Assembly: GCF_044324875.1 (NCBI RefSeq)
Contig: NZ_CP172186.1
From: Escherichia coli
GTDB taxonomy: Bacteria; Pseudomonadota; Gammaproteobacteria; Enterobacterales; Enterobacteriaceae
DNA length: 64,000 nt
Strand: one strand, 5' to 3'
Shown here one piece after another: positions 3,861-58,425 of the stretch. The notes under the pieces are model-generated. The model saw only the letters and a program-made list of their open reading frames with translations. It was not told the DNA's origin and made no database searches. The position numbers and the translations under genes are program-made. Numbering within the stretch: the first letter of the stretch is position 1; each line of letters starts with the position of its first letter.

Positions 3861-4631
3861 ATGAACAAAACGCTGAATGCACTGGTTTGTCACCACGCCC
3901 GTAACCTGCTGCTGGCGCAGGGCTGGCCGGAAGAGACGGATGTTGACCAGCGTAACCCGAAGTATCCGGGCTGGATCAGCATTTATGTTCTGCTGGATGC
4001 GCCCCGGCTGGCGACGTTACTTATCAACCGTCACGGCGGCGTACTGCCGCCGCTCCTGGCCTCCGCCATTCACAAACTGACCGGAACCGGGGCGGAAGTT
4101 GTACTGTCCGGCAGTCAGTGGCAGTCGCTGCCGGTACTTCCGGCAGACGGAACGCAGGTGTCTTTCCCGTATGCCGGAGAATGGCTGACCGAAGACGAAA
4201 TCAGGGCAGTTCTTGATGCAGTGCGCGATGCGGTACGCAGTGTCAGTTGCCGGGTGACAGAAGATGCGCGGCGTATCAGGGCGGCGCTGACCACAACCGG
4301 TCAGACGTTGCTGACCCGCCAGACGCGGCGCTTTCGCCTGGTTGTGAAGGAAAGCGATCACCCCTGCTGGCTCGATGAAGACGACGAAAACCTGCCCGTG
4401 GTGCTCGATGCCATCCTGAACCGGGGCGCTCGTTTTTCTTCGGTGGAAATGTATCTGGTCAGTGAGTGTGTGGAGCATATCCTGTCCAGTGGGCTGGCCT
4501 GCGATGTGCTGCGTATACCGGATGAACCGCCCCGCCGGTGGTTTGACCGTGGTGTTCTGCGGGAGGTGGTCCGGGAAGCCCGGGCCGAAATCCGCAGCAT
4601 GGCGGATGCCCTGGCAAAAATCCGGAAATGA
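3861..4631 (+). CDS. leading-region hypothetical protein
   Basis: 256 aa ORF, same strand and codon style as neighbours. Confidence 0.6.
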
Positions 4632-4687
4632 TGACGCTGGCGGGGAAAAATCTCCGCCTTTTCCAGCCGGTCCCCGGAAAGAGCAAA

Positions 4688-5040
4688 AGGATGTCGCCGC
4701 AGGCTCCGCTTTACTCGGCCATGCGGGGCATGGCCTTGTGGGTTTTCAGTTATGTGGCCTCAGCGTCGTGTGCGGGCTGTGCCGTGCCTCCATCGTAGCC
4801 GGGCTTCTGCGGGCGGGTTGCAAGGTAAGGTGAACCGCTGCGGTCACCCGGTCCCTCCTTCCCGTCTGCCGTGATTTTCCGGTCGTTCACCCGCTCAGAT
4901 TTCGCGGTCTCACCCTCCAACTCCCGCCAGCCGTGTGCGTCAGGCTGCGGCTTCCCTTGCGCCCTTGCAACCCTGCAGGCCCGGCAAAGATGGAGGCACG
5001 GCACCGCCCGGTGTCGCGGAATATGTGAACAACGGAGGAA
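4688..5040 (+). promoter_or_regulatory. single-strand-promoter-like structured element, family A copy 1 (upstream of klcA)
   Basis: ~350-bp GC-rich element with long-range inverted repeats (TGCCGTGCCTCCATC ... GATGGAGGCACGGCA), near-identical to 16918..17275. Confidence 0.5.
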
Positions 5041-5045
5041 ATCCC

Positions 5046-5471
5046 ATGCAGTATGCGAAACCTGTCACCCTGAACGTTGAAGAGTGCGACCGCCTTTCTT
5101 TTCTGCCTTACCTGTTTGGCAACGATTTTCTGTATGCCGAGGCGTATGTGTACGCGCTGGCGCAAAAAATGATGCCGGAATATCAGGGAGGCTTCTGGCA
5201 TTTCATCCGCCTGCCGGACGGTGGCGGTTACATGATGCCGGATGGCGACCGTTTTCATCTGGTCAACGGTGAAAACTGGTTTGACCGCACTGTGAGTGCT
5301 GATGCCGCAGGCATCATTGTTACGTCTCTTGTGATTAACCGCCAGTTGTGGCTGTACCACGACAGCGGGGATGCGGGACTGACACACCTGTACCGGATGC
5401 GTGATGCGCAGTTGTGGCGTCACATCGAATTTCACCCCGAATGCAACGCGATTTACGCGGCACTGGACTGA
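5046..5471 (+). CDS. klcA: antirestriction protein KlcA/ArdB family
   Basis: 141 aa from MQYAKPVTLNVEECDRLSFLPYLFGNDFLYAEAYVYALAQ..., recalled KlcA/ArdB signature. Confidence 0.75.
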   Translation: MQYAKPVTLNVEECDRLSFLPYLFGNDFLYAEAYVYALAQKMMPEYQGGFWHFIRLPDGGGYMMPDGDRFHLVNGENWFDRTVSADAAGIIVTSLVINRQLWLYHDSGDAGLTHLYRMRDAQLWRHIEFHPECNAIYAALD

Positions 5472-5517
5472 TTAACGGACGGGGCGGCAATGCCGCCCCT
5501 GTAAAGGAGACGAGAAC

Positions 5518-5937
5518 ATGTACTGTACTGTTAAAGAAATTATCCGCGAAGTGCTGAATACAGACGTGCCGGACAGTGAATGTGTTTTTGCCGTGGTGCT
5601 GACCCGCGGGGATGTGCGCCACATAGCCCGGGACTGGAACCTGTCAGACGATGAGCTGGAAACCGTCATGCAGCGGCTGGACGATGCTTTTGTATATGGC
5701 GCATGTGACAGAGTTGTTTCCGATATTGTCAATGAACTGATGGAGGAAAAGCGCGTAAACCGTCTTGTAACAGTTCCTGCGGTGCTGCTGGAAAAAGTGA
5801 TGGTGATGGCTGGTAGTGAAATTTATCGCCTCCATGCTGTAGGGAGCGAGAACGGGGGCGACGGTGACGCATTTGTCAGGGAAGAACGTGAGATTATGCG
5901 GGTAATGCGTCAGGCGCTGGACGGGGAGAACGGGTAA
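5518..5937 (+). CDS. leading-region hypothetical protein (paralog of 3382..3816)
   Basis: 139 aa; RBS GGAGACGAG. Confidence 0.6.
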   Translation: MYCTVKEIIREVLNTDVPDSECVFAVVLTRGDVRHIARDWNLSDDELETVMQRLDDAFVYGACDRVVSDIVNELMEEKRVNRLVTVPAVLLEKVMVMAGSEIYRLHAVGSENGGDGDAFVREEREIMRVMRQALDGENG

Positions 5938-6128
5938 TGAATATCAGCACGGAAACCCGCGAAATTCTGCGTAATTACAGGGCCGTGATTAATGCGCGGC
6001 GTCGTGAAATGGGGCAGAAACCGCTCACCACCGCGCAGATTGTTGATGAAATCTGTGATTTTGTGGCGAATCAGCAGGCGGTTTTCCTCGGTGGTCACTA
6101 TATCCTTCAGGGCAGCAGGCACAGGTGA
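5937..6128 (+). CDS. hypothetical small protein
   Basis: 63 aa, start overlaps previous stop. Confidence 0.35.
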   Translation: MNISTETREILRNYRAVINARRREMGQKPLTTAQIVDEICDFVANQQAVFLGGHYILQGSRHR

Positions 6129-6289
6129 TACAGGGGCAGGCGGTGGAGGCCGCCTGTCAGCCCGCGCGAAAACCCCTGGCAGGCTGGCGCCTGCCGGAAG
6201 GGATGCGGGCCACGCTGGCGCGTCGCCCGTTACCCTTCCTGTTGGTGACAGGCGTTGTTTCAGGAAGTACCTGTTACAGACCTGTCGTT

Positions 6290-6875
6290 AAAGAACCTTC
6301 TTACACATGCGCCCCTTCGGCTCCCGGCTGCCTGGCGGCATCCGGTCGTCAGGCCCGACTCCGACAGGCAGCTGCTGGCGCACCCGCCAGTCTCCGCCGA
6401 ACCCGCTGGCGCGGTTTCGGGCTGTCGCTACGGTCCGATGCGTGAAAACCCGGGCTTGCAGCGACCGTTCCGGTCGCGCCGCCTCTGTCGCGCCGTGACC
6501 TGCGCTCCCTGCACACCTGACGGTGTGTGAGGAAACTGCGCCTGATGGCGCAGCAGTCCTCCCTCCTGCCGCCACCTCTGCGGCCTGTTTCCCGCTGTGG
6601 ACTTTCCGGGGGGCAGACGTAACCCCCTCCCGTTCCATCTGTCCAGGGTGAGATGCACCGGCCACAAAATTTTTAGCCATGAACCCGGCAAAAAATTTTG
6701 CGTCCGCCCCCGGACAGCTGCCCCGTGAGGCGGTAAACGGGCCCCCATCGGAAAGGTCCACTGCGGGGAGAAACCCCTGTGAAGTGGACGGCAGGAGGAG
6801 CTTTCGCTCCTCTGAAGGGGCACATGAACGTCCCGTCGCCGGTATCCGGTTTATCTCACATCTTTCAGTCAGGAG
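6290..6875 (+). promoter_or_regulatory. single-strand-promoter-like structured element, family B copy 1 (upstream of ssb)
   Basis: ~580-bp GC-rich repeat also found at 17935..18505 and, 3' part only, 20990..21380; contains CCACAAAA(C/T)TTTT...GCGTC(C/T)GCCCCCGGACA(G/A)CTGCCCCGTG core. Confidence 0.5.
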
Positions 6876-6881
6876 GTTCTT

Positions 6882-9800
6882 ATGAGTGCACGTGGTATCA
6901 ACAAGGTCATCCTCGTCGGGGTGCGCCGTTGAAGCGCGGTGTTTTATGGAGTGTTGCCTGAAAAGCAACATGGCTTAGTGGTATAGCCATTGCATACTGT
7001 GGTTAGCCTTGCTTGGTAACAGGCTCGGAGATCCTGAAAAGGAGAGGTGAACATAGCATCCACAGAAAAGGGTGGTGAATATGGAAATCGTTATAAGTAT
7101 CACCATTCAATGCAAGATGTATATGGATAAACTGGGTTTGTTGAAGTCGAGATCTATGTGGGAAACAGGAAACCAATAACGCAGAACGATTGAAGCGTTA
7201 TTCCCGTACTAGCACAAGAAATCCGTCCGACGTTGATTGTGACCACTCTAACGGGCCAGCTATTGATGAAATAGTTAAACGATCGAAAGACATCCTAAGT
7301 ACATCGCATCTCCACACCGTGAAACTACGGGACTACCTAAACTGGATTTATACCCAGCATGGTAGCGGAGTCTCCATAGTACTCAAGGTCGGCCTGTAAT
7401 GGGTTCCGGCAGTCCGCATTATACGGAAGCAGCAAAGGTATAAATCAACCGGAAGGAAGATGAAAGCCTCACAGTGCTGCGGGGAAGGGAGACAGTTGTT
7501 AGATACATCAATCTCTAAGAGGAGGGTTAGCCAATGCTGCCTGATGAACTTGAGAAAAGATTAGATGGAATTGAGGATGCTTCAAAAAAAGGGTATCCAG
7601 TACGTAATCTATACAAAATTGCGTGTGAGCCCGGACTGTGGCTGCAAGCCTACGTGAATATACGGGCCAATGCAGGTGCACTGACTCAAGGTGTATCAAC
7701 AGATACCATTGATGGCTTTTCTATCGAAAGAGCAGAGAAGCTGGCAAAAACATTGCGGAGTAGAGAATACGTAGCGAAACCTGTACGCAGAGTTCAGATC
7801 CCAAAAAAGGACGGAAAAACCAGACCGCTGGGGATTCCAGGTGGAGACGATAAACTGGCGCAAGAAGTAGCAAGAATTATTCTGGAAAGGGTTTATGAAC
7901 CAGTATTCTCTGAACACTCTCATGGATTCAGACCAAAACGTTCGTGTGAAACTGCGCTCAGATCTATTCGTCCAGTCTGGAACGGAGTTAAATGGATCGT
8001 GGATGTTGATATCAAAGGTTTCTTTGACAATATCCCCCACAAACTATTGCTGAATACACTGGCAGAGAAAATTAAGGATAAGAATTTCCTGAAATTAATC
8101 GAACAGTGGCTGAAGGCAGGATATGTGGACAATTGGAAATACCATCGCTCATATTCTGGCACGCCACAAGGTGGGATAATTTCTCCCTTACTGGCAAATA
8201 TATACCTCGACAAACTGGACCGTTTTGTAGAACAGAATTTAATTCCTGCATATACAAGCGGTACAAAACGAAGAGCGAATCCAGATATGAACAGGCTGGC
8301 CCATAAGATTCATAAACTACGAAAGAAAGTAGACGGTATGGCAACTGATTCTGAATCAGAAAAAGAAGCCATAAAGAAAGAAATTGAACGACTGCTTGAA
8401 GAAAAACGTTCTATACCATCTCAGGTCATGAACGATCCAAACTTCAGGCGTATGTACTATGTTCGATATGCTGATGACTTCGTAATCGGTGTCATCGGCT
8501 CGAAGAAAGATGCTGAACATATATCAAGACAGGTCAGAAACTTTATTACTACTTCACTGGGATTGGAAGTTAATGAAGCAAAGACCAGGATCCGCCATAT
8601 CTCAGAAGGAGTTAATTTTTTAGGCTATGAAATCAGACAGGCAGATGCAAAGAAATTGCTGAAGCAGAAAATGCAAGGGCGGCACGCTCTCCGGAGATCC
8701 ACCACAGGAATTGTGCAGCTCTTCGTTCCTGACAATATAGCCGCTAAATTTTGTCACCAAAAGAAATATGGCTGTTATGAGAATGTGAAGGCTGTACATC
8801 GTTCAAGTCTACAAAATCTCAGTGAAGCTGAAATTGTTCTGACTTTCAACGCGGAAATGCGCGGATTGGCGAACTACTACAGTCTGGCGCTGGACATGAA
8901 ATATAAATTATCAAAATTATATTTCATATGGCAAATAAGCCTTTTTAAGACCCTGGCGAATAAACGACGTAGTTCAGTGAATAAAGTCGCCAAATCGCTA
9001 CGGCAAAATAATGGAGATCTGGCTATTACCGTTCAGGCCAAAAATGGATCCCGAAAGATTGAGGTTTTCAAACTCAAACATGTCAATCGCAACCGAACAA
9101 CGATTGTCGATACGGAACCGAGAACCGCACATATCACAACCCGCACAACAGAGATCATGCGTCGATTAGGGGCAAGGATCTGCGAGTATTGTGCGAAGAC
9201 TGGGCGCTGCGAAGTACATCATGTCAGAAAGCTAAAAGACCTGAAGAAAGGTCGTAAGGCCGGATATAAACCCAGCTTGTGGCAACTAATGATGATCGCA
9301 CGCCGCCGGAAAACGATGATTTTGTGCGCAAGTTGCCACGACAAGTTACATAGCGGAAAACTACCCGATTTGAGACAGGAAAAGGGAAGAATACTCCTGC
9401 AACCACCTGTCTCAAGCGGGGATTCTGCTAAATGAGTTTATCCCCAATAAGCTAGCAATGGAGAGCCGTATGCACTGAAAGGTGCACGTACGGTTCGGAG
9501 GGGGGGTAACGGTGATCTAACTCAAGATAAGCAGGACATATTCGCCATTTATCTTGAAAGACCACACGTACCCTACCCTACCGTCTGGGCAATGATCCGG
9601 AAGTCTGTTACATCCCCAACGGGGGCGCAGTGGCAAACCTGCAGGTCGCCACGTCAGAAAGCTGGCGCGACAAACAGACGGGGGAGATGCGGGAGCAGAC
9701 GGAATGGCACCGCGTGGTGCTGTTCGGCAAGCTCGCGGAAGTGGCTGGTGAATATCTGCGCAAGGGCGCGCAGGTCTACATCGAGGGGCAACTCCGTACC

Positions 9801-10416: not shown

Positions 10417-12375
10417 ATGTCAGTTACAGAGTCTAAGACAAAAACGGAGCGTAAATCCAGCCGTAAACCTGCAAAAACGCAGGAAACCGTCCTGTCAGCC
10501 CTGCTGGCGCAGACGGAGGAAGTGAGCGTGCCGCTGGCCTCGCTGATTAAATCACCGCTGAATGTGCGCACGGTGCCGTATTCTGCGGAGTCTGTCAGCG
10601 AACTGGCGGACTCCATTAAAGGTGTCGGCCTGTTACAGAATCTGGTTGTTCATGCCCTGCCAGGTGACCGTTACGGTGTCGCCGCAGGCGGTCGCCGACT
10701 GGCTGCACTCAACATGCTGGCAGAGCGTGGCATCCTTACGGCTGACTGGCCTGTACGCGTGAAGGTTATTCCGCAGGAGCTGGCGACTGCCGCATCAATG
10801 ACTGAAAACGGTCATCGTCGGGATATGCACCCTGCTGAACAGATCGCCGGATTCCGCGCAATGGCGCAGGAAGGCAAAACACCTGAGCAGACTGGCGACC
10901 TGCTGGGCTATTCACCCCGCCACGTCCAGCGAATGCTGAAACTGGCAGACCTTGCACCCGTCATCCTTGATGCGCTGGCAGAAGACCGCATCACCACCGA
11001 ACACTGTCAGGCGCTGGCGCTGGAGAACGACACCGCGCGTCAGGTGCAGGTGTTTGAAGCCGCCTGCCAGTCAGGATGGGGCGGTAAACCGGATGTGCGG
11101 GTTATCCGCAACCTGATTACCGAAAGTGAAGTGGCGGTGGCGGGGAACAGTAAATTCCGCTTCGTGGGGGCTGATGCCTTCTCGCCAGACGAACTGCGCA
11201 CCGATTTGTTCAGCGATGACGGGGACGGTTATGTCGACCGCGTGGCGCTCGATGCCGCCCTGCTGGAAAAACTCCAGGCTGTCGCTGAACACCTTCGGGA
11301 AGCCGAAGGCTGGGAATGGTGCGCCGGGCGCATGGAGCCTGTCGGTGAGTGCCGTGAGGATGCCGGAACATACCGCTGTCTGCCGGAGCCGGAAGCGGTG
11401 CTGACGGAGGCGGAATACGAACGCCTGAACGAACTGATGACGCGTTACGACGCGCTGGAAAACCAGTGTGAGGAATCCGACCTGCTGGAAGCAGAAATGA
11501 AGCTGATGCGCTGCATGGCGAAGGTCAGAGCGTGGACGCCGGAGATACGTGCCGGAAGCGGTGTGGTGGTGTCCTGGCGTTATGGCAACGTATGTGTCCA
11601 GCGTGGTGTGCAGTTGCGCAGTGAAGATGACGCGACTGACGACGCTGACCGCACGGAACAGGTGCAGGAGAAAGCGTCAGTGGAGGAAATCAGCCTGCCG
11701 TTGCTGACGAAAATGTCCTCAGAGCGCACGCTGGCAGTCCAGGCGGCACTCATGCAGCAGCCGGACAAATCCCTGACACTGCTGGCATGGACGCTCTGCC
11801 TGAATGTGTTTGGCAGCGGGGCGTACAGTAAACCAGCACAAATCAGCCTGGAATGTGAACATTATTCGCTGACCAGCGATGCGCCATCGGGGAAGGAAGG
11901 TGCCGCATTCATGGCGCTGATGGCAGAAAAATCCCGTCTTGCAGCCCTGCTGCCGGAGGGATGGTCACGGGACATGACGACATTCCTGTCCCTCAGTCAG
12001 GAGGTGCTGTTATCCCTGCTCAGTTTCTGCACCGCATGCAGCCTTAACGGTGTCCAGACCCGTGAGTGTGGTCACACGTCACGCAGTCCGCTTGACTCGC
12101 TGGAAATCGCTATCGGATTCCACATGCGCGACTGGTGGCAGCCGACAAAAGCAAACTTCTTCGGACACCTGAAAAAGCCACAAATTATCGCAGCCCTGAA
12201 TGAGGCCGGACTGTCCGGTGCCGCACGGGACGCGGAGAAGATGAAGAAAGGTGATGCGGCTGAACATGCAGAGCACCATATGAAAGACAACCGCTGGGTT
12301 CCAGGCTGGATGTGTGCACCACATCCACAGACAGATGCCACTGAACGCACCGATAACCTGACTGATGCCGCCTGA
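10417..12375 (+). CDS. ParB/Srx-like nuclease-domain protein (large leading-region ParB-like protein)
   Basis: 652 aa; N-terminal ParB-like box ...VPLASLIKSPLNVRTVPY...GLLQNLVVHAL...GGRRLAALNML... Confidence 0.75.
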   Translation: MSVTESKTKTERKSSRKPAKTQETVLSALLAQTEEVSVPLASLIKSPLNVRTVPYSAESVSELADSIKGVGLLQNLVVHALPGDRYGVAAGGRRLAALNMLAERGILTADWPVRVKVIPQELATAASMTENGHRRDMHPAEQIAGFRAMAQEGKTPEQTGDLLGYSPRHVQRMLKLADLAPVILDALAEDRITTEHCQALALENDTARQVQVFEAACQSGWGGKPDVRVIRNLITESEVAVAGNSKFRFVGADAFSPDELRTDLFSDDGDGYVDRVALDAALLEKLQAVAEHLREAEGWEWCAGRMEPVGECREDAGTYRCLPEPEAVLTEAEYERLNELMTRYDALENQCEESDLLEAEMKLMRCMAKVRAWTPEIRAGSGVVVSWRYGNVCVQRGVQLRSEDDATDDADRTEQVQEKASVEEISLPLLTKMSSERTLAVQAALMQQPDKSLTLLAWTLCLNVFGSGAYSKPAQISLECEHYSLTSDAPSGKEGAAFMALMAEKSRLAALLPEGWSRDMTTFLSLSQEVLLSLLSFCTACSLNGVQTRECGHTSRSPLDSLEIAIGFHMRDWWQPTKANFFGHLKKPQIIAALNEAGLSGAARDAEKMKKGDAAEHAEHHMKDNRWVPGWMCAPHPQTDATERTDNLTDAA

Positions 12376-12429
12376 TGAACAACCACACCGCCCCGCCGGA
12401 GACGGGGCGGCAGCAAGGGAGATACCGTG

Positions 12430-12864
12430 ATGAAAACTGAACTGACCCTGAATGCCCTGCAGTCCATGAACGCACAGGAATATGAAGATATCCGTGCTGC
12501 GGGAAGCGATATGCGCCGTAATCTCACTCACGAGGTGATGCGTGAAGTGGACGCACCGGCTAACTGGATGATGAATGGCGAGTATGGCAGTGAGTTCGGG
12601 GGCTTTTTCCCCGTCCAGGTTCGTTTCACGCCAGCCCACGAACGTTTCCACCTGGCATTATGTTCGCCGGGAGACGTCTCTCAGCTCTGGATGCTGGTTC
12701 TGGTGAGTGGTGGTGGACAGCCTTTCGCCGTCGTTCAGGTGCAACATATCTTCACGCCTGTCGCGATCAGTCACACGCTGGCGCTCGCCGCGACACTTGA
12801 TGCGCAGGGATACAGTGTTAACGACATCATTCATATTTTGATGGCAGAAGGAGGTCAGGCATGA
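12430..12864 (+). CDS. psiB: plasmid SOS inhibition protein PsiB
   Basis: 144 aa [27 protein letters not shown]...[32 protein letters not shown]...; near-identical to recalled PsiB. Confidence 0.9.
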
Positions 12865-13071
12865 GCGCATGCAAAATGGCATCTGAATCGATCGCAGTTT
12901 GGCATTCGAATCGATCATGATTTGGCATCCATCTCCGATCACAGTTTGGCATCACAATCGATCACGATTTGGCATGCTTCCGATCATTGATTGGCATCCT
13001 GCCAGTCACTCCGGGAATTAACTCTTTTCACCACAGTCTCCATTGCCGTGTTTAAACCAGTGGAGACGTCA

Positions 13072-14637
13072 ATGTCCAGAAAGAGAAAATCCAGGAGCAC
13101 TATGGAAACCTGTTTTAAGATCCTTCAGCTCAAGTTCGACAAGAAGCTGACTAACCGTTGTATCGGACTGACGTTACACATCAGCGCCTCAACCGTTTTT
13201 GAGGTTCTTGCCCGCTTCAAAGCCTCTTCTCTGTCATGGCCATTACCTGCTGATATATCCCATGACACGCTGGAGAAACTCATTTTTCCGCCCAAAGACA
13301 CCTTTGCATCAGAGCTTGTAATGCCTGACATGTTGTACTTCGATACGGAAATGAGAAAACCAGGTGTGACGCGGCAACTGTTGTGGATGGAATACAAGGC
13401 ACAGGCGGGTAACAAAGCGATGGGATACTCGCACTTCTGCCGTTGCTACCGGGAGTGGAAAAAAACGCGACGTCTCTCCATGCGCCAGGAGCATCGTGCC
13501 GGCGAAAAGCTTTTTATCGACTTCTGTGGTCCTACGGTTCCTGTTATTAATCCGGACACCGGTGAGATACGCCGCGTGGCAATCTTCGTGGCCGTAATGG
13601 GGGCGTCCAACTATACCTACGTTGAAGCGTGCGAAGGTCAGGACATGATGTCATGGTTAAATGCCCACAGCCGTTGCCTGACCTTCCTGGGCGGCGTACC
13701 GAAGCTGCTCATCCCCGATAACCTCAGAAGCGCAGTGAAAAAGGCCGATCGATATGAGCCTGTCATCAACGACAGTTATCAGGCACTGGCTGAGCACTAT
13801 GGCACGGTTATCATCCCGGCCCGACCACGCAAACCTAAAGATAAACCAAAAGCAGAAAACGGCGTCCTCATCGTTGAACGATGGCTTCTTGCCCGCATCC
13901 GTAATGAAACCTTCCACACGCTCAGGGCGCTGAATGCGCGCCTTAGGGAGTTACTGACAGACATGAATAACCGGCCAATGAAGGGGTACGGCAATCAAAC
14001 CCGTGCAGAACGCTTCCGCATACTGGATGCGCCAGCACTCTCTCCGCTGCCTCTGGCACCTTATGAATACACGGAATACAAAGCTGTGAAGGTTGGCCCT
14101 GACTACCACGTTGAATATGCCCGTCACTGGTACTCCGTTCCACACGAACTGGTCGGTCAGCGTCTGTCACTGAAGGCGGGGCAGTCGGTGGTACAGCTCT
14201 GGCACAAGGGGCAGTGTGTGGCGCAACATCCGCGCAGCACACATGAATATAAACACACAACCAATCCGCTTCACATGCCAGAGCGCCACCGGCAGCACGG
14301 GACATGGACACCGGAACGCCTGATCGAGCAGGGAAAACGTACGGGCCCGTCCACAGGCCGGGTGGTTGAATCCATGCTGAAGGCAAAACCCCATCCGGAA
14401 CTGGCTTATCGTGCAGTTCTGGGGCTGCTGGCACTTCAGAAAAAATACGGCCCGGAACGGCTGGAAAAGGCCTGTTACGTTGCCCTGCACTATAACGCCC
14501 CTGACAGACGCTTTATCGACAATCTGCTGCGTCACCATCGGGAGAACCTGGAGCTTCCATTATCCCGCCAGGGCGAACAACATCCGGCATATGCTTCAGA
14601 GCATGAAAACCTGCGTGGTCCGGGCTACTACCACTGA
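13072..14637 (+). CDS. istA: IS21-family transposase IstA
   Basis: ~521 aa, HTH N-terminus and DDE integrase core; start chosen at MSRKRKS after GGAGACG RBS. Confidence 0.85.
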   Translation: MSRKRKSRSTMETCFKILQLKFDKKLTNRCIGLTLHISASTVFEVLARFKASSLSWPLPADISHDTLEKLIFPPKDTFASELVMPDMLYFDTEMRKPGVTRQLLWMEYKAQAGNKAMGYSHFCRCYREWKKTRRLSMRQEHRAGEKLFIDFCGPTVPVINPDTGEIRRVAIFVAVMGASNYTYVEACEGQDMMSWLNAHSRCLTFLGGVPKLLIPDNLRSAVKKADRYEPVINDSYQALAEHYGTVIIPARPRKPKDKPKAENGVLIVERWLLARIRNETFHTLRALNARLRELLTDMNNRPMKGYGNQTRAERFRILDAPALSPLPLAPYEYTEYKAVKVGPDYHVEYARHWYSVPHELVGQRLSLKAGQSVVQLWHKGQCVAQHPRSTHEYKHTTNPLHMPERHRQHGTWTPERLIEQGKRTGPSTGRVVESMLKAKPHPELAYRAVLGLLALQKKYGPERLEKACYVALHYNAPDRRFIDNLLRHHRENLELPLSRQGEQHPAYASEHENLRGPGYYH

Positions 14638-14653
14638 CAGAAGGAACAACAGT

Positions 14654-15409
14654 ATGAGTGATAACCTGTTAAACAAACTGACCCAACTGAAACTCCCGGC
14701 GATGGCCGGGAGCCTGATACGGCAGCGGGAAACGCCTCAGACCTACGACGAACTGTCGTTCGAGGAAAGGCTGACGCTGCTGGTTGATGACGAGCTTCTG
14801 AGCAGGGAAAACAGCCGTGTGGCACGGTTGAGAAAAAATGCCGGCCTGAAATACCAGGCAACACCGGAAGGGCTGCGCTATCCGGCCTCAAGAGGTCTGC
14901 GGGCTGAACAGATGAGAGAACTGCTGAACGGCCACTACATAACCCACAGGAAAAACCTGCTGATAACCGGTCCGACAGGATGTGGCAAGAGCTGGATAGC
15001 CAATGCGCTGGGCGAACAGGCATGTCGACAGAAACACAGCGTCCGGTACTGTAGAACCGGGCGATTACTGGAACAACTGGCTCAGGGACGTGTTGATGGC
15101 AGCTGGCTGAAATATCTGAAACAGTTGCAAAAAATACAGGTTCTAATCCTGGACGATCTGGGGCTGGAACAGTTAAGTAACGCCCAGTGTAATGACCTTC
15201 TGGAGCTCATAGAGGATCGTTACGGACAAAGCAGCACGATAGTGGTAAGCCAGTTCCCGGTAGATAAATGGCATGGTCTGATGGAGAACCCAACAACAGC
15301 AGATGCCATCCTGGACAGACTGGTACATAACTCACACCGAGTGGTCCTTCAGGGAGAGTCACTGAGGAAAAATCCCCCGGTAGTGGAAAGCAGCGAAAAA
15401 ACGCGTTAA
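14654..15409 (+). CDS. istB: IS21-family helper ATPase IstB
   Basis: 251 aa; Walker A LLITGPTGCGKSW, Walker B ILILDDLG. Confidence 0.9.
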   Translation: MSDNLLNKLTQLKLPAMAGSLIRQRETPQTYDELSFEERLTLLVDDELLSRENSRVARLRKNAGLKYQATPEGLRYPASRGLRAEQMRELLNGHYITHRKNLLITGPTGCGKSWIANALGEQACRQKHSVRYCRTGRLLEQLAQGRVDGSWLKYLKQLQKIQVLILDDLGLEQLSNAQCNDLLELIEDRYGQSSTIVVSQFPVDKWHGLMENPTTADAILDRLVHNSHRVVLQGESLRKNPPVVESSEKTR

Positions 15410-15509
15410 AAAGCGGTAGAAAAAGTTAAGTTCCCGGTTGATCGAATGGATGCGAATCGCTGATCGGACTTCGATGCCAATCCGTGATCGAATAGAGCGG
15501 AATACGCAA

Positions 15510-16225
15510 GCGCACGTTCACGGGCACTGATCCCCCTCAGCGCAGAACAACAGGCCGCTATGCAGGCTGTGGCTGTCACCGAACAACGTCGTCGTCAGGG
15601 ACGCACACTTTCAGCATGGCCTTATGCCACCGCTTTCTTTCGCTGCCTGAATGGCAGTCGCCGGATTTCGCTGACCGATCTCCGCTTTTTTGCCCCTGCG
15701 CTGACGAAGGAGGAATTTCATGGCAACCGTCTCCTGTGGCTGGCTGCAGTGGACAAACTGATTGAAAGTTTTGGTGAAGTCTGTGTTCTTCCCCTGCCAT
15801 CCGATGCGGGGCATCGTTTGTTCCCGTCCGTTCCTTTTCGTGAAGGTGAGCGGCGTCGTCAGAAAACCACGCTGACAGAGCAGAAATACAGCCGCCAGCG
15901 GGAACGTGAGGCAGAACGACGGGAACGGGAATACCAGACATGTTTTGCTCAGGCGCAGATTGACCTTGCGTTTCATACTCCCGCCACGGTCGGAAGCTGG
16001 TTGTCCCGCTGGTCTGGTGTTGTTGAGGAGCATGATCTGGAAACGATTTTCTGGGGGTGGTGCGGGCGTTTTCCATCACTGTCATCATTTGACCGGTTTT
16101 TCTGGCAGGAGGAACCACTCTGGCGGTTGATTTTTGAAGCCGGTGAGGCCGGTCGTGGTGCACCGGTACAGGTACGTGCACTTGAGCAGTGGATGATCCC
16201 GAACAAGCTGGAGAACGTAATATGA
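15510..16225 (+). pseudogene. psiA: plasmid SOS inhibition protein PsiA, separated from its first three codons (12861..12869) by the IS21-family insertion
   Basis: Joining ATGAGCGCA to the sequence after the IS gives MSARSRALIPLSAEQQAAMQAVAVTEQRRRQGRTLSAWPY..., matching PsiA. Confidence 0.8.
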
Positions 16226-16818
16226 TGAAATCAGACGAAAAATACCAGGTTCCCGCGTGGATGCGACCTCTGTTGCCGTTGCTCTGCAACACCGGGGAGA
16301 ACGATCCGGAAGAACTGCTGAATGATACAGAAACCACTGCCAGTGCGAATGTTGTCCGTTATGTGCTGATAGTTGCTGTGCGGTCGCAGGTTGATCTGCT
16401 GCAGCTTCTGTACAGGAAAGGGCTGTTGCGCACAGAGATACCAGGTGGCTTTTCACCGGAAGAAGCGCAGGAACTCCTGGATAATCTGGTGCGCAGCCAT
16501 ATCAGCAGGGCGCTGTCGGGTGAGCGAATGGCAGCCCGTGACAGGAATGCCGATCTGGCCTGGATTCGACAGCAACTGGTCGATGCCGCCTGGTTTGTCC
16601 GTGCCACACTGGAAGCGCATGGGATGAGCGTCGGAAATGAGAGTCCCCCTGCTCAGCCGGAGACAATGCCGGACATACAGACACGGGAACTGGTGATGTT
16701 GATCAAGCGACTGGCATCATCGCTGAAAGCGGTGAAACCGGACAGTTGTGTGGTGCGTGAAGCGCAGGACTGGCTGCGCGACAGAAAACTTGTGAGCATC
16801 ACGGATGTTCTTCGGTGA
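16222..16818 (+). CDS. leading-region hypothetical protein
   Basis: 198 aa from MMKSDEKYQ; start overlaps psiA stop. Confidence 0.55.
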   Translation: MMKSDEKYQVPAWMRPLLPLLCNTGENDPEELLNDTETTASANVVRYVLIVAVRSQVDLLQLLYRKGLLRTEIPGGFSPEEAQELLDNLVRSHISRALSGERMAARDRNADLAWIRQQLVDAAWFVRATLEAHGMSVGNESPPAQPETMPDIQTRELVMLIKRLASSLKAVKPDSCVVREAQDWLRDRKLVSITDVLR

Positions 16819-16917
16819 ACCAGTGGAGGTATGCTTGAGGAGCAGGGACATGCCGGCCATGATCGTTTCGTTCCAGGGGTGGTCTGGAGATCATGCGGCG
16901 TGTCCTCTGCACTCGCC

Positions 16918-17275
16918 GGAATAAGGACGTCGCCGCCGGCTCCGCTTTTACCCGGCCATGCGGGGCATGGCCTTGTGGGTTTTCAGCTCTGTGGCCTCAG
17001 CGTCGTGTGCGGGCTGTGCCGTGCCTCCATCGTAGCCGGGCTTCTGCGGGCGGGATGCAAGGTAAGATGAACCGCTGCGGTCACCCGGTCCCTCCTTCCC
17101 GTCTGCCGTGATTTTCCGGTCGTTCACCCGCTCAGATTTCGCGGTCTCACCCTCCAACTCCCGTCAGCCGTGCGCGTCGGGCTGCGGCTTTCCTTGCGCC
17201 CTTGCATCCCTGCAGGCCCGGCAAAGATGGAGGCACGGCACCGCCCGGTGTCGCAGAACATGTGACTATGGAGGA
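16918..17275 (+). promoter_or_regulatory. single-strand-promoter-like structured element, family A copy 2 (upstream of ardA)
   Basis: Near-identical to 4688..5040. Confidence 0.5.
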
Positions 17276-17934: not shown

Positions 17935-18505
17935 TGTTGTTCTGATGCCCGGAGGCGGGGACACCCTTCGGCTCCCGGCTGCCTGGCGGCATCCGGTCGT
18001 CGGCCCGACTCCGACAGGCAGCTGCTGGCGCACCCGCCAGTCTCCGCCGAACCCGCTGGCGCGGTTTCGGGCTGCCGCTACGGTCCGATGTCTGAAAAAC
18101 CAGGCCTGCAGCGACCGTTCCGGTCGCGCCGCCCCTGTCGCGCCGGAAACGGCGCTCCCTGCACACCTGACGGTGTGTAAGGCCACTGCGCCTGATGGCG
18201 CAGTCAACCCTTCCGCCGCCACCCCTGCGGCCTGTTTCCCGCTGTGGACTTTCCGGGGGCTGAAGCGGCCACAACACGGGGCAGCCGTCCAGGGGAGAGA
18301 TGTACCAGCCACAAAACTTTTTGCCGCAGGCGTCAAAAACTTTTGCGTCTGCCCCCGGACAACTGCCCCGTGCCGTGGCAGTCGCTGCCCCATCGGAAAG
18401 GTCCACTGCGGGGAGAAACCCCGAAGAAGTGGACGGCAGAAGGGGCTTTCGCCCCTCCGGGGGAGCAACCGGTCGGCCCGGCGACCTGATTCAGCAGAAG
18501 GAGAC
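17935..18505 (+). promoter_or_regulatory. single-strand-promoter-like structured element, family B copy 2
   Basis: Near-identical to 6290..6875. Confidence 0.5.
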
Positions 18506-20989: not shown

Positions 20990-21380
20990 TGTTGTGCCGT
21001 CGTTTTTCTTCAGTCGCGCCGGATGCGGCGCTCCCTGCACACCTTACGGTGTGTAAGGCCACTGCGCCTGATGGCGCAGCTGCCTCTGCCTGTCTGCCGC
21101 CGCACTGCGGCCTGTTCTCCGCAGACGGACTTTCCGGGGGTACATACACGACCACATCCCGTTTCAGTCGTCCAGGGGAGAGATGTACCAGCCACAAAAC
21201 TTTTTGCCGCAGGCGTCAAAAACTTTTGCGTCTGCCCCCGGACAACTGCCCCGTGACGTGGTGAGCGTCCCCCGTCGGAAAGGTCCACTGCGGGGAAATC
21301 CCCGAAGACCCGGACGGCAGAAGGAGCTTCGCTCCTCCGGGAAATGACCTGGCTGACCCGGCAGTCGTGACGATGAGGAG
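20990..21380 (+). promoter_or_regulatory. single-strand-promoter-like structured element, family B copy 3 (3' two-thirds only)
   Basis: Matches the 3' part of 6290..6875 and 17935..18505. Confidence 0.45.
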
Positions 21381-33163: not shown

Positions 33164-33193
33164 GTAAGCGACTCGTCAGAACCGTATTGATAT

Positions 33194-34765
33194 TTACTGA
33201 GAGCTCAGATCAACTTTCCAGGGCAACAGATCGCGTACCCGGTTTGCCGGCCAGTCCTGGATATGTTCAATGACGTAACGCAGCCACTTTTCTGGCTCCA
33301 CATTGTTCAGACGGCATGTGCCGATCAGCGAGTACAACACCGCCGCATGTTCACCACCGCTGTCGGAACCCGCGAACATCCAGTTTTTCCGGCCTACGGC
33401 CACTCCCCGTAAGGCGTTCTCTGCGATGTTGTTGTCGATTTCCACCCAGCCATTACTGCAGTACACGTTCAGTGCATCCCACTGTTTCAGCAGGTATGCG
33501 AACGCTTTTGCCGTATCTGAGTGACGCGACAGTGTTTTCATCTGTTGCTGTATCCAGTCATACAGTGACTGCATCAGTGGCGCGGCTCTGGCTTTTCTTG
33601 CCGCCAGACGCTGTTCTGCTGAACAGCCCCGGACCTCTGCCTCGATGGCATACAGTTCACCGATACGCTGCAGGGCTTCCGTGGTGATGTAGGTGGGCGC
33701 TCTTGCATGCACATCGTGGATTTTTCTCCGGGCATGAGCCATACACGCGGCTTCCGTTATTCTGCCGGATTCGTATAACGCCCGGTAACCACCGTAAGCA
33801 TCGGCCTGAAGCACACCGCTGTAACCGGCCAGGTGATTTTGTGGATGGATACCTTTCCGGTCCGGACTGTACGCGAACCAGACCGCCGGGGGCATCTGTG
33901 AACCGGCGTTACGGTCATCACGGACGTAGACCCACAGCCGGGCTGTCCGGGTTTTACCGCTGCCCGGCTCCTGGACCGGGACGGGGATATCATCAGCATG
34001 GACTTTACCGGGCATCAGCACATACTGGCGCAGGACGTCATACAGCGGCTCCAGCAGTTCAGCAACAGCACCTGTCCAGCGCCCCAGTGTGGCACGGCTC
34101 AGCTCCACTCCCTGACGACGGTATATTTCTGACTGGCGGTATAACGGCAGATGGTCTGCATATTTCCCGGTGACAACATGGGCCAGAAGCCCCGCTCCGG
34201 CATAACTGCGTGCAATGGGTTTTGAAGGTACTGGTGCCTGCACGATATGGTCGCACCGGCAACAGGCCTGTTTCGGACGTTGTGTTTCGATAACCTTAAA
34301 GGCGCTGCTGATAAGCTCCAGTTGCTCTGACACATCACATCCCAGAGAACTGAGTTCACCACCACAGGCAGGACAGCATTCCTCTTCCGGCCGGATAACC
34401 CGGGTTTCACGGGGAAGTGAGGCCGGTAACGGTTTACGGGCTGAAGACTGGCGCAGGGCGGATGGCAGTACCGGGTCATATTGCTCACCCAGCGTTTCCG
34501 CCATTTCTTCCTGAAGTGCGCTGATTCGCTCCTGTGCTTCCTGTATCTGCCGTTCGGTTTTTGCACGAAGTTTTTCTGAGCTTTTACCGAACTGCATACG
34601 TTGCAGTTTCGCAACCAGCGCCTTCAGCCGGTTGATTTCGGAAGCATAAGCCGCCACCCGCTGTGAGAGCAGGCGGTTGTATTCAGCCATCTGGCGGATG
34701 GTGTCCTGTTGCGTCTGCAACAGTGCCCGCAGGCGGGCGTTCTCATGAGCAAGTGAGGTGTCCAT
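33194..34765 (-). CDS. IS66-family transposase (TnpC)
   Basis: 523 aa with leucine-zipper N-terminus and CPACGG zinc motif, typical IS66 TnpC. Confidence 0.85.
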
Positions 34766-34784
34766 ATCCTCACTTTACAACGGG

Positions 34785-35132
34785 TTATATGCGGATTCCA
34801 GCGCGTTCCGTTCGTTTCGGGTGCTTCCAGTTGATACCTTCAAGAAGCATGGATAACTGAGCCGGAGTAAGGTGCACCTTGCCGTCACGGGTGACTGGCC
34901 AGACGAAGCGGCCCCGCTCCAGGCGTTTGGTGAAGAGGCACAGTCCGTCACTGTCAGCCCACAACACTTTTATCTGGTCACCCCGGCGTCCGCGGAAGAT
35001 GAACAGGTGTCCGGAGAACGGGTCATCCTTCAGGACGTTCTGAACTTTTGATGCCAGGCCGTTAAAGCCATTTCGCATATCGGTGATACCTGCAACCAGC
35101 CAGATACGCGAACCTGCAGGGAGAGATATCAT
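34785..35132 (-). CDS. IS66-family TnpB (orf2)
   Basis: 115 aa MISLPAGSRIWLVAGITDMRNGFNGLA... Confidence 0.85.
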   Translation of the reverse strand: MISLPAGSRIWLVAGITDMRNGFNGLASKVQNVLKDDPFSGHLFIFRGRRGDQIKVLWADSDGLCLFTKRLERGRFVWPVTRDGKVHLTPAQLSMLLEGINWKHPKRTERAGIRI

Positions 35133-35809
35133 CAGTGGCTGCTCCCTTTTATTTCGCGGATAAGTGTCTGTAATAACGCCGGCGTCAGTTTACCTTTAAG
35201 CCTGAGAGTTCCGGCCGGCAGAACCAGCTCACAACACAGACTGTCGGACGGTGTATTTATCTGCTCTGGTTCCTGTGCGGGGGCCGGGATTTTATTATCC
35301 GGCTCCGGCGTTAACGTCACGGGAAGCAGTGCCGGCATATTTTTTCCGGAAGGCAGCAGGCCACCTTTCCGGTATTGATGGCGCCAGTTGAAGAGCAGGT
35401 TATCGTTGATTCCGTTTTCCCGGGCGATCTGCGCCACACAGGCTCCGGGCTGCAGTGACTGCTCCACTAAGGCGATTTTAAACTCATAAGGGAAGTTGGG
35501 CCGCCGGGGACGTTTTTTTACCACGGGGGCTTCGGATATAACGGTGCTTTCAGGACGTACGACTGGTACCGTGGAAAATTGTCCGTAAAGGCAGGCATCA
35601 AGTTCCTGCTCCGACATGCCTGCGGGCAAAGGCCACGAAAGGCCAGCTCTCCGAAAGCGCACGAACATACTACAAACTGTTGATTTTGGTACACCCAGGC
35701 GACGCCCGGCCACAACCCGGGGTAAATGTTCTTCAAAGTGAAGACGTAAAGCTTCAGTGATCCAGGTCCGGTGTTTCATACGATAGTGTCCATTAAAAAT
35801 GATGGACAT
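35132..35809 (-). CDS. IS66-family orf1 (TnpA-like HTH protein); start uncertain
   Basis: First ORF of the three-gene IS66 arrangement. Confidence 0.7.
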   Translation of the reverse strand: MSIIFNGHYRMKHRTWITEALRLHFEEHLPRVVAGRRLGVPKSTVCSMFVRFRRAGLSWPLPAGMSEQELDACLYGQFSTVPVVRPESTVISEAPVVKKRPRRPNFPYEFKIALVEQSLQPGACVAQIARENGINDNLLFNWRHQYRKGGLLPSGKNMPALLPVTLTPEPDNKIPAPAQEPEQINTPSDSLCCELVLPAGTLRLKGKLTPALLQTLIREIKGSSH

Positions 35810-35855
35810 TATTTTTGTAGAGCCGGAGGAAACAGACCAGACGGTTTAAATGAGC

Positions 35856-36042
35856 CGGTTACTTCCCGACAGACGACTCGGTGAAAAAAGTGGTGTGGCT
35901 GGCAATCCAGTCTGCGTCCCGGAAATGGACGATGCCGTTGAAGGACTGGCGAATGGCAATGAGCCGCTTTATTATCGAGTTCGGTGACCGCCTGGACGGT
36001 CACTTCTGAGAAAGGCATTTACACAGAATCTTAAACAGGCTC
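35856..36042 (+). mobile_element. IS256-family element, second right-end fragment (inverted relative to 26601..26854)
   Basis: Reverse complement of 26601..~26785 including transposase 3' end. Confidence 0.7.
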
Positions 36043-41615: not shown

Positions 41616-41785
41616 TTTTACACCTTTCTGTTATTCTGCTTATTACGACCAGCAGACAGCAAATATTAAAAATAACGCGGCGGTAATGCGTATTCCGCTC
41701 TATTCGATCACGGATTGGCATCGAAGTCCGATCAGCGATTCGCATCCATTCGATCAACCGGGAACTTAACTTTTTCTACCGCTTT

Positions 41786-42541
41786 TTAACGCGTTTTTTC
41801 GCTGCTTTCCACTACCGGGGGATTTTTCCTCAGTGACTCTCCCTGAAGGACCACTCGGTGTGAGTTATGTACCAGTCTGTCCAGGATGGCATCTGCTGTT
41901 GTTGGGTTCTCCATCAGACCATGCCATTTATCTACCGGGAACTGGCTTACCACTATCGTGCTGCTTTGTCCGTAACGATCCTCTATGAGCTCCAGAAGGT
42001 CATTACACTGGGCGTTACTTAACTGTTCCAGCCCCAGATCGTCCAGGATTAGAACCTGTATTTTTTGCAACTGTTTCAGATATTTCAGCCAGCTGCCATC
42101 AACACGTCCCTGAGCCAGTTGTTCCAGTAATCGCCCGGTTCTACAGTACCGGACGCTGTGTTTCTGTCGACATGCCTGTTCGCCCAGCGCATTGGCTATC
42201 CAGCTCTTGCCACATCCTGTCGGACCGGTTATCAGCAGGTTTTTCCTGTGGGTTATGTAGTGGCCGTTCAGCAGTTCTCTCATCTGTTCAGCCCGCAGAC
42301 CTCTTGAGGCCGGATAGCGCAGCCCTTCCGGTGTTGCCTGGTATTTCAGGCCGGCATTTTTTCTCAACCGTGCCACACGGCTGTTTTCCCTGCTCAGAAG
42401 CTCGTCATCAACCAGCAGCGTCAGCCTTTCCTCGAACGACAGTTCGTCGTAGGTCTGAGGCGTTTCCCGCTGCCGTATCAGGCTCCCGGCCATCGCCGGG
42501 AGTTTCAGTTGGGTCAGTTTGTTTAACAGGTTATCACTCAT
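41786..42541 (-). CDS. istB: IS21-family IstB (copy 2)
   Basis: Protein identical to copy 1 IstB. Confidence 0.9.
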   Translation of the reverse strand: MSDNLLNKLTQLKLPAMAGSLIRQRETPQTYDELSFEERLTLLVDDELLSRENSRVARLRKNAGLKYQATPEGLRYPASRGLRAEQMRELLNGHYITHRKNLLITGPTGCGKSWIANALGEQACRQKHSVRYCRTGRLLEQLAQGRVDGSWLKYLKQLQKIQVLILDDLGLEQLSNAQCNDLLELIEDRYGQSSTIVVSQFPVDKWHGLMENPTTADAILDRLVHNSHRVVLQGESLRKNPPVVESSEKTR

Positions 42542-42557
42542 ACTGTTGTTCCTTCTG

Positions 42558-44123: not shown

Positions 44124-44408
44124 TGACGTCTCCACTGGTTTAAACACGGCAATGGAGACTGTGGTGAAAAGAGTTAATTCCCGGAGTGACTGGCAGGATG
44201 CCAATCAATGATCGGAAGCATGCCAAATCGTGATCGATTGTGATGCCAAACTGTGATCGGAGATGGATGCCAAATCATGATCGATTCGAATGCCAAACTG
44301 CGATCGATTCAGATGCCATTTTGCAGGTAAAAATGGCAATTTTTTTCATGCTGTATTTTTGCCATTTATTTTCTTTGAAATGGTTTTTTTCTTCATATCA
44401 GCAAATAA

Positions 44409-56842: not shown

Positions 56843-57120
<278 letters not shown>

Positions 57121-57148
57121 TAAACTCCCTGAGAAAGAGGTAAACAGA

Positions 57149-57475
57149 ATGACTAAAAATACTCGTTTTTCCCCCGAAGTCCGTCAGAGGGCGATTCGTA
57201 TGGTTCTGGAAAGTCAGGGCGAATATGACTCACAGTGGGCGGCAATTTGTTCCATTGCCCCAAAGATTGGCTGTACACCGGAGACTCTGCGTGTCTGGGT
57301 ACGCCAGCATGAGCGGGATACCGGAGGCGGTGATGGCGGGCTCACCACCGCTGAACGTCAGCGTCTGAAAGAGCTGGAACGTGAAAATCGTGAACTGCGC
57401 CGCAGTAACGATATCCTTCGCCAGGCTTCCGCTTATTTTGCGAAGGCGGAGTTCGACCGCCTCTGGAAAAAGTGA
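57149..57475 (+). CDS. IS629 OrfA
   Basis: 108 aa [41 protein letters not shown]... Confidence 0.9.
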
Positions 57476-58362: not shown

Positions 58363-58425
58363 GTTCACAGATAAAACACTCTCCAGGAAACCCGGGGCGG
58401 TTCAAAACGTCAGCCACATCACAAA

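Follow-up and report, generated by a model that had tools for sequence, protein, structure and literature searches.

An ISSso4 insertion after the third codon of psiA on an IncK2/Z plasmid of Escherichia coli

Organization of the psiB–psiA locus

The psiB–psiA (plasmid SOS inhibition) locus is known from F, R6-5, ColIb-P9 and the I-complex plasmids. We analysed a window of 64,000 nucleotides of E. coli contig NZ_CP172186.1 (assembly GCF_044324875.1), which belongs to a conjugative IncK2/Z (I-complex) plasmid with psiA in its leading region. The features of the locus are listed in Table 1. A first-pass annotation had described psiA as split after its third codon by an IS21-family element, and psiB as intact and overlapping the psiA start; both descriptions hold. 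The psiA start, ATGAGCGCA (12861–12869, ATG-AGC-GCA), lies directly 3' of psiB and shares bases with the psiB stop codon TGA (12862–12864), giving an ATGA stop/start overlap (12861–12864) that is also present in the annotated relative described below. It is followed by 2,639 bp of ISSso4, a common insertion sequence of Shigella and E. coli, and then by the rest of the gene. The full-length profile match makes the psiB product a member of the PsiB family, and it is predicted to inhibit SOS induction. PsiB is a RecA-binding SOS inhibitor, and inhibition of RecA activation and SOS is known for the PsiB proteins of F and pED208 (PMC8406263). Downstream, orf198 had no Pfam or NCBIfam match, and its PHROG matches were solely of unknown function.

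Table 1. Features of the interrupted psiB–psiA locus (positions in the window)
Feature	Position	Strand	Evidence or remark
psiB, intact, 144 aa	12430..12864	+	Pfam PF06290 PsiB, 191.2 bits, profile 1–139/139
psiA 5' fragment, start codon and codons 2–3 (Met-Ser-Ala)	12861..12869	+	same ATG as annotated psiA start in pLH50-c-A
19-aa junk ORF opened by psiA start, stops within IS left end	12861..12920	+	translation
Target-site duplication AGCGCA, left copy	12864..12869		single copy at pLH50-c-A empty site
ISSso4 (IS21 family), complete, 2,639 bp	12870..15508	+	100% full-length matches annotated IS21/ISSso4 family
IS left end: TG terminus followed by five direct repeats of ~23 bp, possible sites of IstA binding	12870..12998	+	repeat spacing 22–24 nt
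istA, transposase, 521 aa	13072..14637	+	NCBIfam NF033546 IS21 family transposase, 284.6 bits (cutoff 160)
istB, helper ATPase, 251 aa	14654..15409	+	Pfam PF01695, 205.7 bits; NCBIfam NF038214, 257.8 bits (cutoff 200)
IS right end: two repeat motifs, CA terminus	15449..15508	+	repeat search
Target-site duplication AGCGCA, right copy	15509..15514		sequence and empty-site comparison
psiA remainder, codons 4–239 and stop	15515..16225	+	no secondary mutations
Sole ORF left for PsiA, 221 aa from Met19	15560..16225	+	SD duplex −2.5 kcal/mol
orf198, hypothetical	16222..16818	+	start overlaps psiA stop (ATGA); hypothetical protein in pLH50-c-A too
Second ISSso4, 100% identical copy, 5-bp duplication GGTAA	41687..44325	−	also missing from pLH50-c-A

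The inserted element

The element begins TGCAAAATGG and finishes GAATACGCA; these imperfect terminal inverted repeats have the 5'-TG...CA-3' ends of the IS21 family, and the left-end repeats stand in inverse orientation to the right-end motifs. IstA is a DDE transposase of the IS21 type and IstB an AAA+ helper ATPase; istB lies on the same strand as istA, its start 17 nt past the istA stop. In Pfam, IstA matched Mu-transpos_C_2 (72.1 bits) and, slightly below the cutoff of 32.6, rve (32.1 bits). IS21-family elements make short target-site duplications of 4–8 bp, and the 6 bp duplicated at psiA fall within this range. The element matched 506 plasmid records (339 at an identity of at least 99%), many of the copies being 100% identical over the full 2,639 bp and located at unrelated sites; in itself it does not differ from annotated ISSso4. 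Ten copies that we examined had identical ends, each with its own target duplication of 4–7 bp. Since the same ends recur at unrelated sites, the boundaries of the element are fixed independently of the window. The same length of 2,639 bp is given for ISSso4 in the inventory of pMUB-MIN6-1 (PMC8703133), a plasmid that also matches the window element; on ISSso4 biology or the psiA::ISSso4 allele, the literature yielded inventory mentions only. IS21-family elements transpose through a tandem or circular (IS)2 junction; the window contains no tandem junction of this kind. A target-site preference was considered, and the eleven ISSso4 insertion sites gave no consensus; AGCGCA resembles both the terminal ACGCA of the IS and ATGAGCA, the duplication at another copy, and these likenesses were taken as chance.

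The empty site in an intact relative

The closest intact psiB–psiA copy was found on pLH50-c-A (NZ_CP100501.1, IncK2/Z), whose annotated psiA spans 720 nt and begins 4 nt ahead of the psiB stop. The two plasmids are nearly identical and share the order ssb-DUF905-parB-like-psiB-psiA-orf198-ardA, the ATGA overlaps and an identical psiB; they differ in that psiA of the window is interrupted and its ssb contains a group II intron. The first-pass annotation had pointed to an AGCGCA direct repeat flanking the IS and proposed comparison with a relative free of it. This comparison bore the repeat out: pLH50-c-A carries a single AGCGCA, and its alignment to the window consists of two collinear blocks that overlap by exactly 6 bp (12026–12031 of the pLH50-c-A locus extract), so that the duplication is seen directly. 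Excision of the IS together with one AGCGCA repeat restores a PsiA of 239 aa that was matched at 100% in tblastn, and the rejoined sequence is 100% identical to pLH50-c-A over 742 bp. The arrangement of AGCGCA and IS did not arise by chance.

Assemblies classically go wrong where one replicon carries two identical IS copies, and a repeat-resolution error could in principle have misplaced a copy into psiA. This explanation is largely refuted, and we give it almost no weight: the 6-bp duplication at psiA is perfect and differs from the 5-bp duplication at the other copy, and a Logan short-read contig (run ERR14764776) independently joins the IS right end to AGCGCA and psiA, being identical to the window over 15481–16976.

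That contig was the one further occurrence of a junction. No record spanning either psiA::ISSso4 junction was present among 72,556 PLSDB plasmids, the allele was absent from 5,426 RefSeq complete E. coli genomes, and the exact left junction was absent from the JGI metagenomes and GTDB genomes. The allele is private; carriers would be recognizable by the 33-mer GGTCAGGCATGAGCGCATGCAAAATGGCATCTG. psiA was intact in 4,182 of 4,279 matching plasmids (about 98%). Natural psiA lesions elsewhere comprised two deletion fusions, two frameshifted products and one N-terminally substituted product.

The N-terminal segment of PsiA

A canonical PsiA start downstream of the insertion point would have refuted the first-pass annotation, but this is not the case. 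Residues 1–18 of PsiA are conserved in 20 homologues (identity down to 54%), with M1, P10, A17 and A18 invariant and residues 8–12, 17 and 18 invariant or nearly so, and this conservation across the family places the canonical start upstream of the insertion. Consistently, rejoined PsiA matched Pfam PF06952 (139.6 bits) over profile positions 3–236 of 237; as split in the window, only residues 19–239 remain as an ORF. The product starting at Met19 scored 125.4 bits, its match beginning at profile position 19. No relative of PsiA with a solved structure was found by profile search of the PDB, and an AlphaFold2 model from the 20-sequence alignment had a mean pLDDT of 68, with only 36–60 over residues 1–120; this is too low to judge whether residues 1–18 are integral to the fold, and the model was set aside.

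Predicted consequences for expression

The native psiA Shine–Dalgarno (SD) sequence, AAGGAGGT, is strong (SD duplex −12.4 kcal/mol), and lies inside psiB upstream of the ATG. Ribosomes would still load there and would then translate the 19-aa ORF, terminating within the left end of the IS. At the right end of the IS all three frames are closed; the psiA frame has its last stop, TGA, at 15485–15487, and between it and Met19 at 15560 this frame contains no ATG, GTG or TTG. The proposal in the first-pass annotation that PsiA could come only from an IS-internal or an internal start is thus narrowed to the internal Met19, the IS offering no in-frame start.

The same annotation held that the operon is uncoupled. 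Translational coupling is indeed lost, whereas transcription probably reads through, as the IS is co-oriented with the operon and contains no recognizable terminator: a consensus scan found no + strand terminator-like site inside it. The only such sites, at 15792–15816, lie within psiA in a stretch identical in intact pLH50-c-A. Nor did a consensus scan of 12300–16300 show any sigma-70-like promoter on the + strand, including outward or hybrid promoters at the IS right end. A hybrid promoter at the left end was considered and rejected on direct reading (a −10-like TGCAAAAT, no matching −35 box in the flank).

It could be argued that psiA is knocked down, the term used in the first-pass annotation. 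In this case read-through from the Frpo/ssb-psiB operon and istAB would supply mRNA, and a functional PsiA lacking residues 1–18 would start at Met19 or GTG22. The probable read-through, the intact 221-aa ORF free of secondary mutations and a weak AGG 5 nt ahead of Met19 are in keeping with this. However, pairing at Met19 is worth only −2.5 kcal/mol against −12.4 kcal/mol at the native site, the segment that would be missing contains the (near-)invariant residues 8–12, 17 and 18, and position 19 is W or L rather than Met in most homologues. In addition, about 150 untranslated nt ahead of Met19 make Rho-dependent polarity likely. We therefore regard a functional knock-down as unlikely. The weak SD of Met19 argues for knockout rather than knock-down as the better term, and PsiA would effectively be knocked out; a little truncated PsiA, initiated at Met19 or dependent on read-through, is possible.

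No second psiA or psiB copy that might compensate was found within the window. Because the orf198 start overlaps the psiA stop (ATGA), orf198 is likely coupled translationally to psiA and collaterally affected, its translation probably being lowered too. psiB, its ribosome binding site and everything upstream are unaltered by the insertion. The view that the SOS-inhibition locus is otherwise intact applies to psiB but needs qualification for the upstream ssb, which is interrupted by a group II intron (6921–9581). The intron has the same sense as ssb and is common, with 122 PLSDB plasmids carrying it, so that it is presumably spliced out.

Mobile elements on the plasmid

Besides the two copies of ISSso4, the window plasmid has gained one element each of the IS66 and IS3 families, together with the ssb intron. 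The psiA insertion is ordinary IS activity, and it is recent, as judged from the two identical IS copies, flanks at least 99.9% identical to pLH50-c-A and the unmutated psiA remainder. An independent ISSso4 insertion at the psiA–orf198 locus was found in Logan contig SRR7414835_110, in the same orientation and with 5 mismatches. It also lies at an ATGA gene junction, in this case that of the psiA stop and orf198 start, with a 5-bp ATATG duplication, and leaves PsiA full-length with 40 additional IS-encoded residues. All three leading-region insertions of ISSso4 seen (the window, SRR7414835_110 and p8R-3, beside an antirestriction gene) are co-oriented with the genes encoded on the T-strand.

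Discussion

We consider it very probable that a recent, simple transposition of ISSso4 into psiA, with loss of full-length PsiA and no effect on psiB, accounts for the locus. A complete element encoding IstA and IstB would have transposed into codons 2–3 of psiA, a staggered cut duplicating AGCGCA. Full-length PsiA would no longer be made; the last in-frame start, Met19, has no usable SD, and its product would lack the conserved N-terminal segment.

Alternatively, inactivation may have been adaptive, with loss of PsiA or orf198 selected, for example if PsiA counteracts PsiB or SSB or is costly to the host. The independent insertion at the psiA stop and orf198 start, the other natural psiA lesions (deletion fusions, frameshifts and one N-terminally substituted product) and a significant reduction of mating SOS upon psiA deletion in pED208 (PMC8406263) are compatible with such selection. 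However, the exact allele is missing from every large collection searched and so gives no indication of spreading, nearly all matching plasmids have an intact psiA, and several further mobile elements were gained at unrelated sites, which fits random IS activity. We find this explanation improbable.

Simple transposition, the reading that we favour, makes the insertion evidence that ISSso4 is still active on an IncK2/Z plasmid of the poultry type. It opens no new mechanism, and its importance as an ordinary insertional knockout is small. The allele could act as a lineage marker for the plasmid, and it is natural psiA-null, psiB-positive material for the role of PsiA in I-complex plasmids. A more speculative thought comes from the IS and the ssb intron being co-directional within the operon that is expressed on T-strand entry. 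Transcription from a single-strand (Frpo/ssi-type) promoter might then express istA and istB in a burst in each new host. Such a 'zygotic induction' of transposition before the plasmid is double-stranded would turn the leading region into a launch pad from which the IS spreads, and the shared orientation of the three leading-region insertions would fit it; we think it quite unlikely to be true.

The SOS phenotype implied by the first-pass annotation is doubtful. In pED208, deletion of psiA did not raise mating-induced SOS, which was slightly but statistically significantly lower, and only psiB and ssb mattered (PMC8406263). On this ground we would expect no SOS phenotype from the loss of psiA here, by extrapolation from one F-like plasmid to the I-complex. 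Against a complete lack of phenotype, the retention of psiA in more than 4,000 plasmids implies that the gene is selected for something. The engineered pED208 deletion (Al Mamun et al. 2021, PMC8406263) resembles the window allele in that PsiA is lost and psiB is kept. However, it is a clean deletion on an F-like plasmid, whereas the window allele adds a co-oriented IS of 2.6 kb to an I-complex plasmid, with possible polarity on orf198.

Insertion point in psiA

The window aligns collinearly, at an identity of at least 99.7%, with pLH50-c-A (NZ_CP100501.1), an IncK2/Z plasmid of E. coli from Swiss poultry faeces. At psiA, two alignment blocks share exactly 6 bp of pLH50-c-A (12026-12031, AGCGCA), and the window carries 2,639 extra bases. 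psiA reads ATG-AGC-GCA (12861-12869) and then switches into IS sequence (TGCAAAATGGCATC); the IS ends with GAATACGCA at 15508, where psiA resumes as AGCGCA-CGT-TCA-CGG without any further mutation. Removal of 12870-15508 and one AGCGCA restored a 720-nt ORF, whose 239-aa protein matched Pfam PsiA over profile positions 3-236 of 237 (139.6 bits), and the rejoined 742-bp site was 100% identical to pLH50-c-A. There, RefSeq annotates a 720-nt "plasmid SOS inhibition protein A" whose start precedes the psiB stop by 4 nt. The block overlap and the identity of the rejoined site therefore establish the 6-bp duplication and the insertion point as fact rather than pattern matching. The first-pass annotation, in which an IS21-family element flanked by AGCGCA splits psiA and leaves psiB intact and overlapping the psiA start, was thus correct: psiB is the same sequence as in pLH50-c-A, and its stop TGA (12862-12864) is overlapped by the psiA ATG at 12861, upstream of which lies the near-perfect Shine-Dalgarno sequence AAGGAGGT.

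The split would be illusory if canonical PsiA started downstream of the insertion. This is not the case: among 20 aligned full-length homologues (54-99% identity), M1, P10, A17 and A18 are invariant, L8, V9, L11 and S12 nearly so, and position 19 is mostly W or L, not M. Without residues 1-18, the Pfam score fell to 125.4 bits, the truncated ORF aligning from profile position 19.

Features of the psiA locus, with repeats and mobile elements of the window
Feature	Position	Strand	Description
Repeat family A	4687-5039, 16923-17275		Non-coding; upstream of leading-region genes
Repeat family B	6313-6812, 17964-18457, 21013-21341		Non-coding; upstream of leading-region genes
Group II intron, 2,661 bp	6921-9581	+	Interrupts ssb (ATG 6882) after codon 13; not in pLH50-c-A
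psiB	12430-12864	+	Intact 144-aa ORF; Pfam PsiB, full profile, 191.2 bits
istA	13072-14637	+	NCBIfam "IS21 family transposase", 284.6 bits (cutoff 160)
istB	14654-15409	+	PF01695, 205.7 bits; NF038214, 257.8 bits (cutoff 200)
orf198	16222-16818	+	Start overlaps psiA stop by ATGA; completes a psiB-psiA-orf198 chain of overlapping genes
IS66-family element, 2.7 kb	~33164-35862	-	Three ORFs (225, 115 and 523 aa), TnpA/TnpB/TnpC-like in order; placed in the family from these ORFs, not by profile search; not at this site in pLH50-c-A
Second ISSso4	41687-44325	-	100% identical to psiA copy; own 5-bp GGTAA duplication; not in pLH50-c-A
IS3-family element, 1.3 kb	~57095-58397	+	OrfA 108 aa, OrfB 296 aa; not at this site in pLH50-c-A

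Identity of the inserted element

The 2,639-bp insert has two genes, istA and istB, which are oriented like psiB and psiA. Its termini are TG...CA, and its subterminal direct repeats of ~23 bp (five left, two right) form two mutually inverted sets. In PLSDB, 506 records matched, 339 of them at 99% or more, annotated as IS21 or ISSso4 family; full-length 100% matches occurred at many unrelated plasmid positions. ISSso4 is given as a 2,639-bp element of pMUB-MIN6-1 (PMC8703133), and the record of that plasmid is among the matches. Ten copies, two from the window and eight from other plasmids, had common ends, and each was flanked by a separate direct target duplication (4-7 bp); a target-site consensus was not evident among them. 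Judged by these ends and duplications, the element in psiA is a complete ISSso4.

Residual expression of the interrupted locus

From the psiA start, the reading frame now runs for only 19 aa (12861-12920) before it stops inside the left end of the IS. None of the three frames is open at the right end, and ATG, GTG and TTG are all absent from the psiA frame between its last stop (TGA, 15485) and Met19 (15560); istB is in the psiA frame by chance, with three stops between them. Predicted anti-Shine-Dalgarno pairing was -12.4 kcal/mol at the native start versus -2.5 kcal/mol at Met19. Full-length PsiA therefore cannot be made, and PsiA without residues 1-18 is unlikely to be produced at a substantial level. 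Of the two origins previously proposed for residual PsiA, an internal start survives as Met19 but an in-frame start within the IS does not, and the supposed knock-down is better called a knockout.

Consensus scans found no terminator-like site on the + strand of the IS and no sigma-70-like promoter on the + strand of 12300-16300. Transcription from upstream probably reads through the element. What the insertion removes is translational coupling, so the operon is uncoupled in translation but probably not in transcription. Translation of orf198 probably depended on that of psiA and, because of the ATGA overlap, is likely to be reduced now. ardA, further downstream, is preceded by a repeated element of its own (16923-17275) and should be unaffected. 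orf198, an uncharacterised, conserved leading-region gene, matched no family in Pfam or NCBIfam; only its C-terminus matched PHROGs of unknown function (phrog_660, 4.2e-09).

Repeats of two families, whose members are 86-95% identical, precede leading-region genes, ssb and ardA among them. On the T-strand (minus strand), the copy preceding ssb (6313-6812) folds into a long imperfect hairpin (~240 nt; z = -9.9 versus shuffles), as expected for the Frpo/ssi single-strand promoters, from which leading-region genes encoded by the T-strand are expressed early (PMC11541004; 10.64898/2026.01.09.698686). The repeats are probably promoters of this type. It is conceivable, though improbable, that the co-oriented transposase genes would then be transcribed at entry into every new host.

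Other mobile elements and distribution of the allele

The SOS-inhibition locus had been called otherwise intact; this holds for psiB but not for ssb upstream. The intron in ssb begins GTGCG, encodes a 633-aa RT/maturase (TIGR04416, 310.7 bits) and matches Rfam RF00029 (domain V/VI) at 9461-9581, up to the exact insertion boundary; its removal restores a 173-aa SSB. With 122 PLSDB plasmids spanning the same ssb-intron junction, this is a recurrent homing site. The second ISSso4 is intergenic, adjoining a thermonuclease-family gene, and the ~26-kb segment between the two inverted copies could invert. The IS66-family element adjoins an IS3-family copy. The extra IS3-family element has a counterpart of 99.5% identity at another position in pLH50-c-A; at the site of the extra element, the alignment blocks overlap by 9 bp of that plasmid. 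The unmutated psiA remainder, the identity of psiB to that of pLH50-c-A and the several other elements gained point to a recent insertion in a lineage with active mobile elements.

No PLSDB record and none of 5,426 complete E. coli genomes spanned either psiA junction, and the exact 33-nt left junction was absent from JGI metagenome contigs and GTDB representative genomes. The allele is private. Two short Logan contigs have a gene call for the 221-aa Met19 product. One of them, a 1,496-nt contig of run ERR14764776 that is identical to window 15481-16976, begins 28 nt within the IS right end and crosses AGCGCA into psiA; the junction is therefore real in public reads, which disfavours misassembly.

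psiA was contiguous in 4,182 of 4,279 matching plasmids (~98%); lesions do occur, as a minority. Logan contig SRR7414835_110 carries an independent ISSso4 (4175-6813; five mismatches to the window copy, same orientation) precisely where psiA stops and orf198 starts; the target duplication is ATATG, and PsiA is lengthened by 40 IS-encoded residues; an IS605-type OrfB/TnpB gene follows at the expected place of orf198. In P0011 (79 contigs, Salmonella enterica) a ParB-like protein is fused in-frame to PsiA and psiB is deleted; in P0039 the partner is a DNA methylase. These fusions, which keep the C-terminal ~73% and ~56% of PsiA, respectively, imply deletions removing psiB entirely in some circulating plasmids. 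Database proteins P0084 and P0090 are frameshifted PsiA. In CP070395.1, an E. coli plasmid from chicken meat, the psiA region (57510-58252) is 99.9% identical with a 1-bp length difference and no annotated psiA CDS; it is probably a frameshifted pseudogene.

Expected consequence

No PsiA relatives were found in the PDB, and an AlphaFold2 model was unreliable across the N-terminal half. The searchable literature offers only one direct genetic test, the pED208 study (Al Mamun et al. 2021, PMC8406263). Deletion of psiB or ssb raised mating-induced SOS; deletion of psiA gave no rise and a small significant drop, and SOS was not suppressed by translocated PsiA. The study also refers back to the original recA441 assays, where expression of psiB alone was inhibitory for SOS. 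Both genes are still called SOS inhibitors in a 2026 NAR paper, which names psiB as the one that functions independently (PMC12826799). Because the psiA deletion in pED208 did not raise mating-induced SOS, derepression in recipients would not be expected from the insertion. Neither the IS nor the gene is new: psiA::ISSso4 is an ordinary insertional knockout, recent and private, for which no SOS phenotype is predicted.
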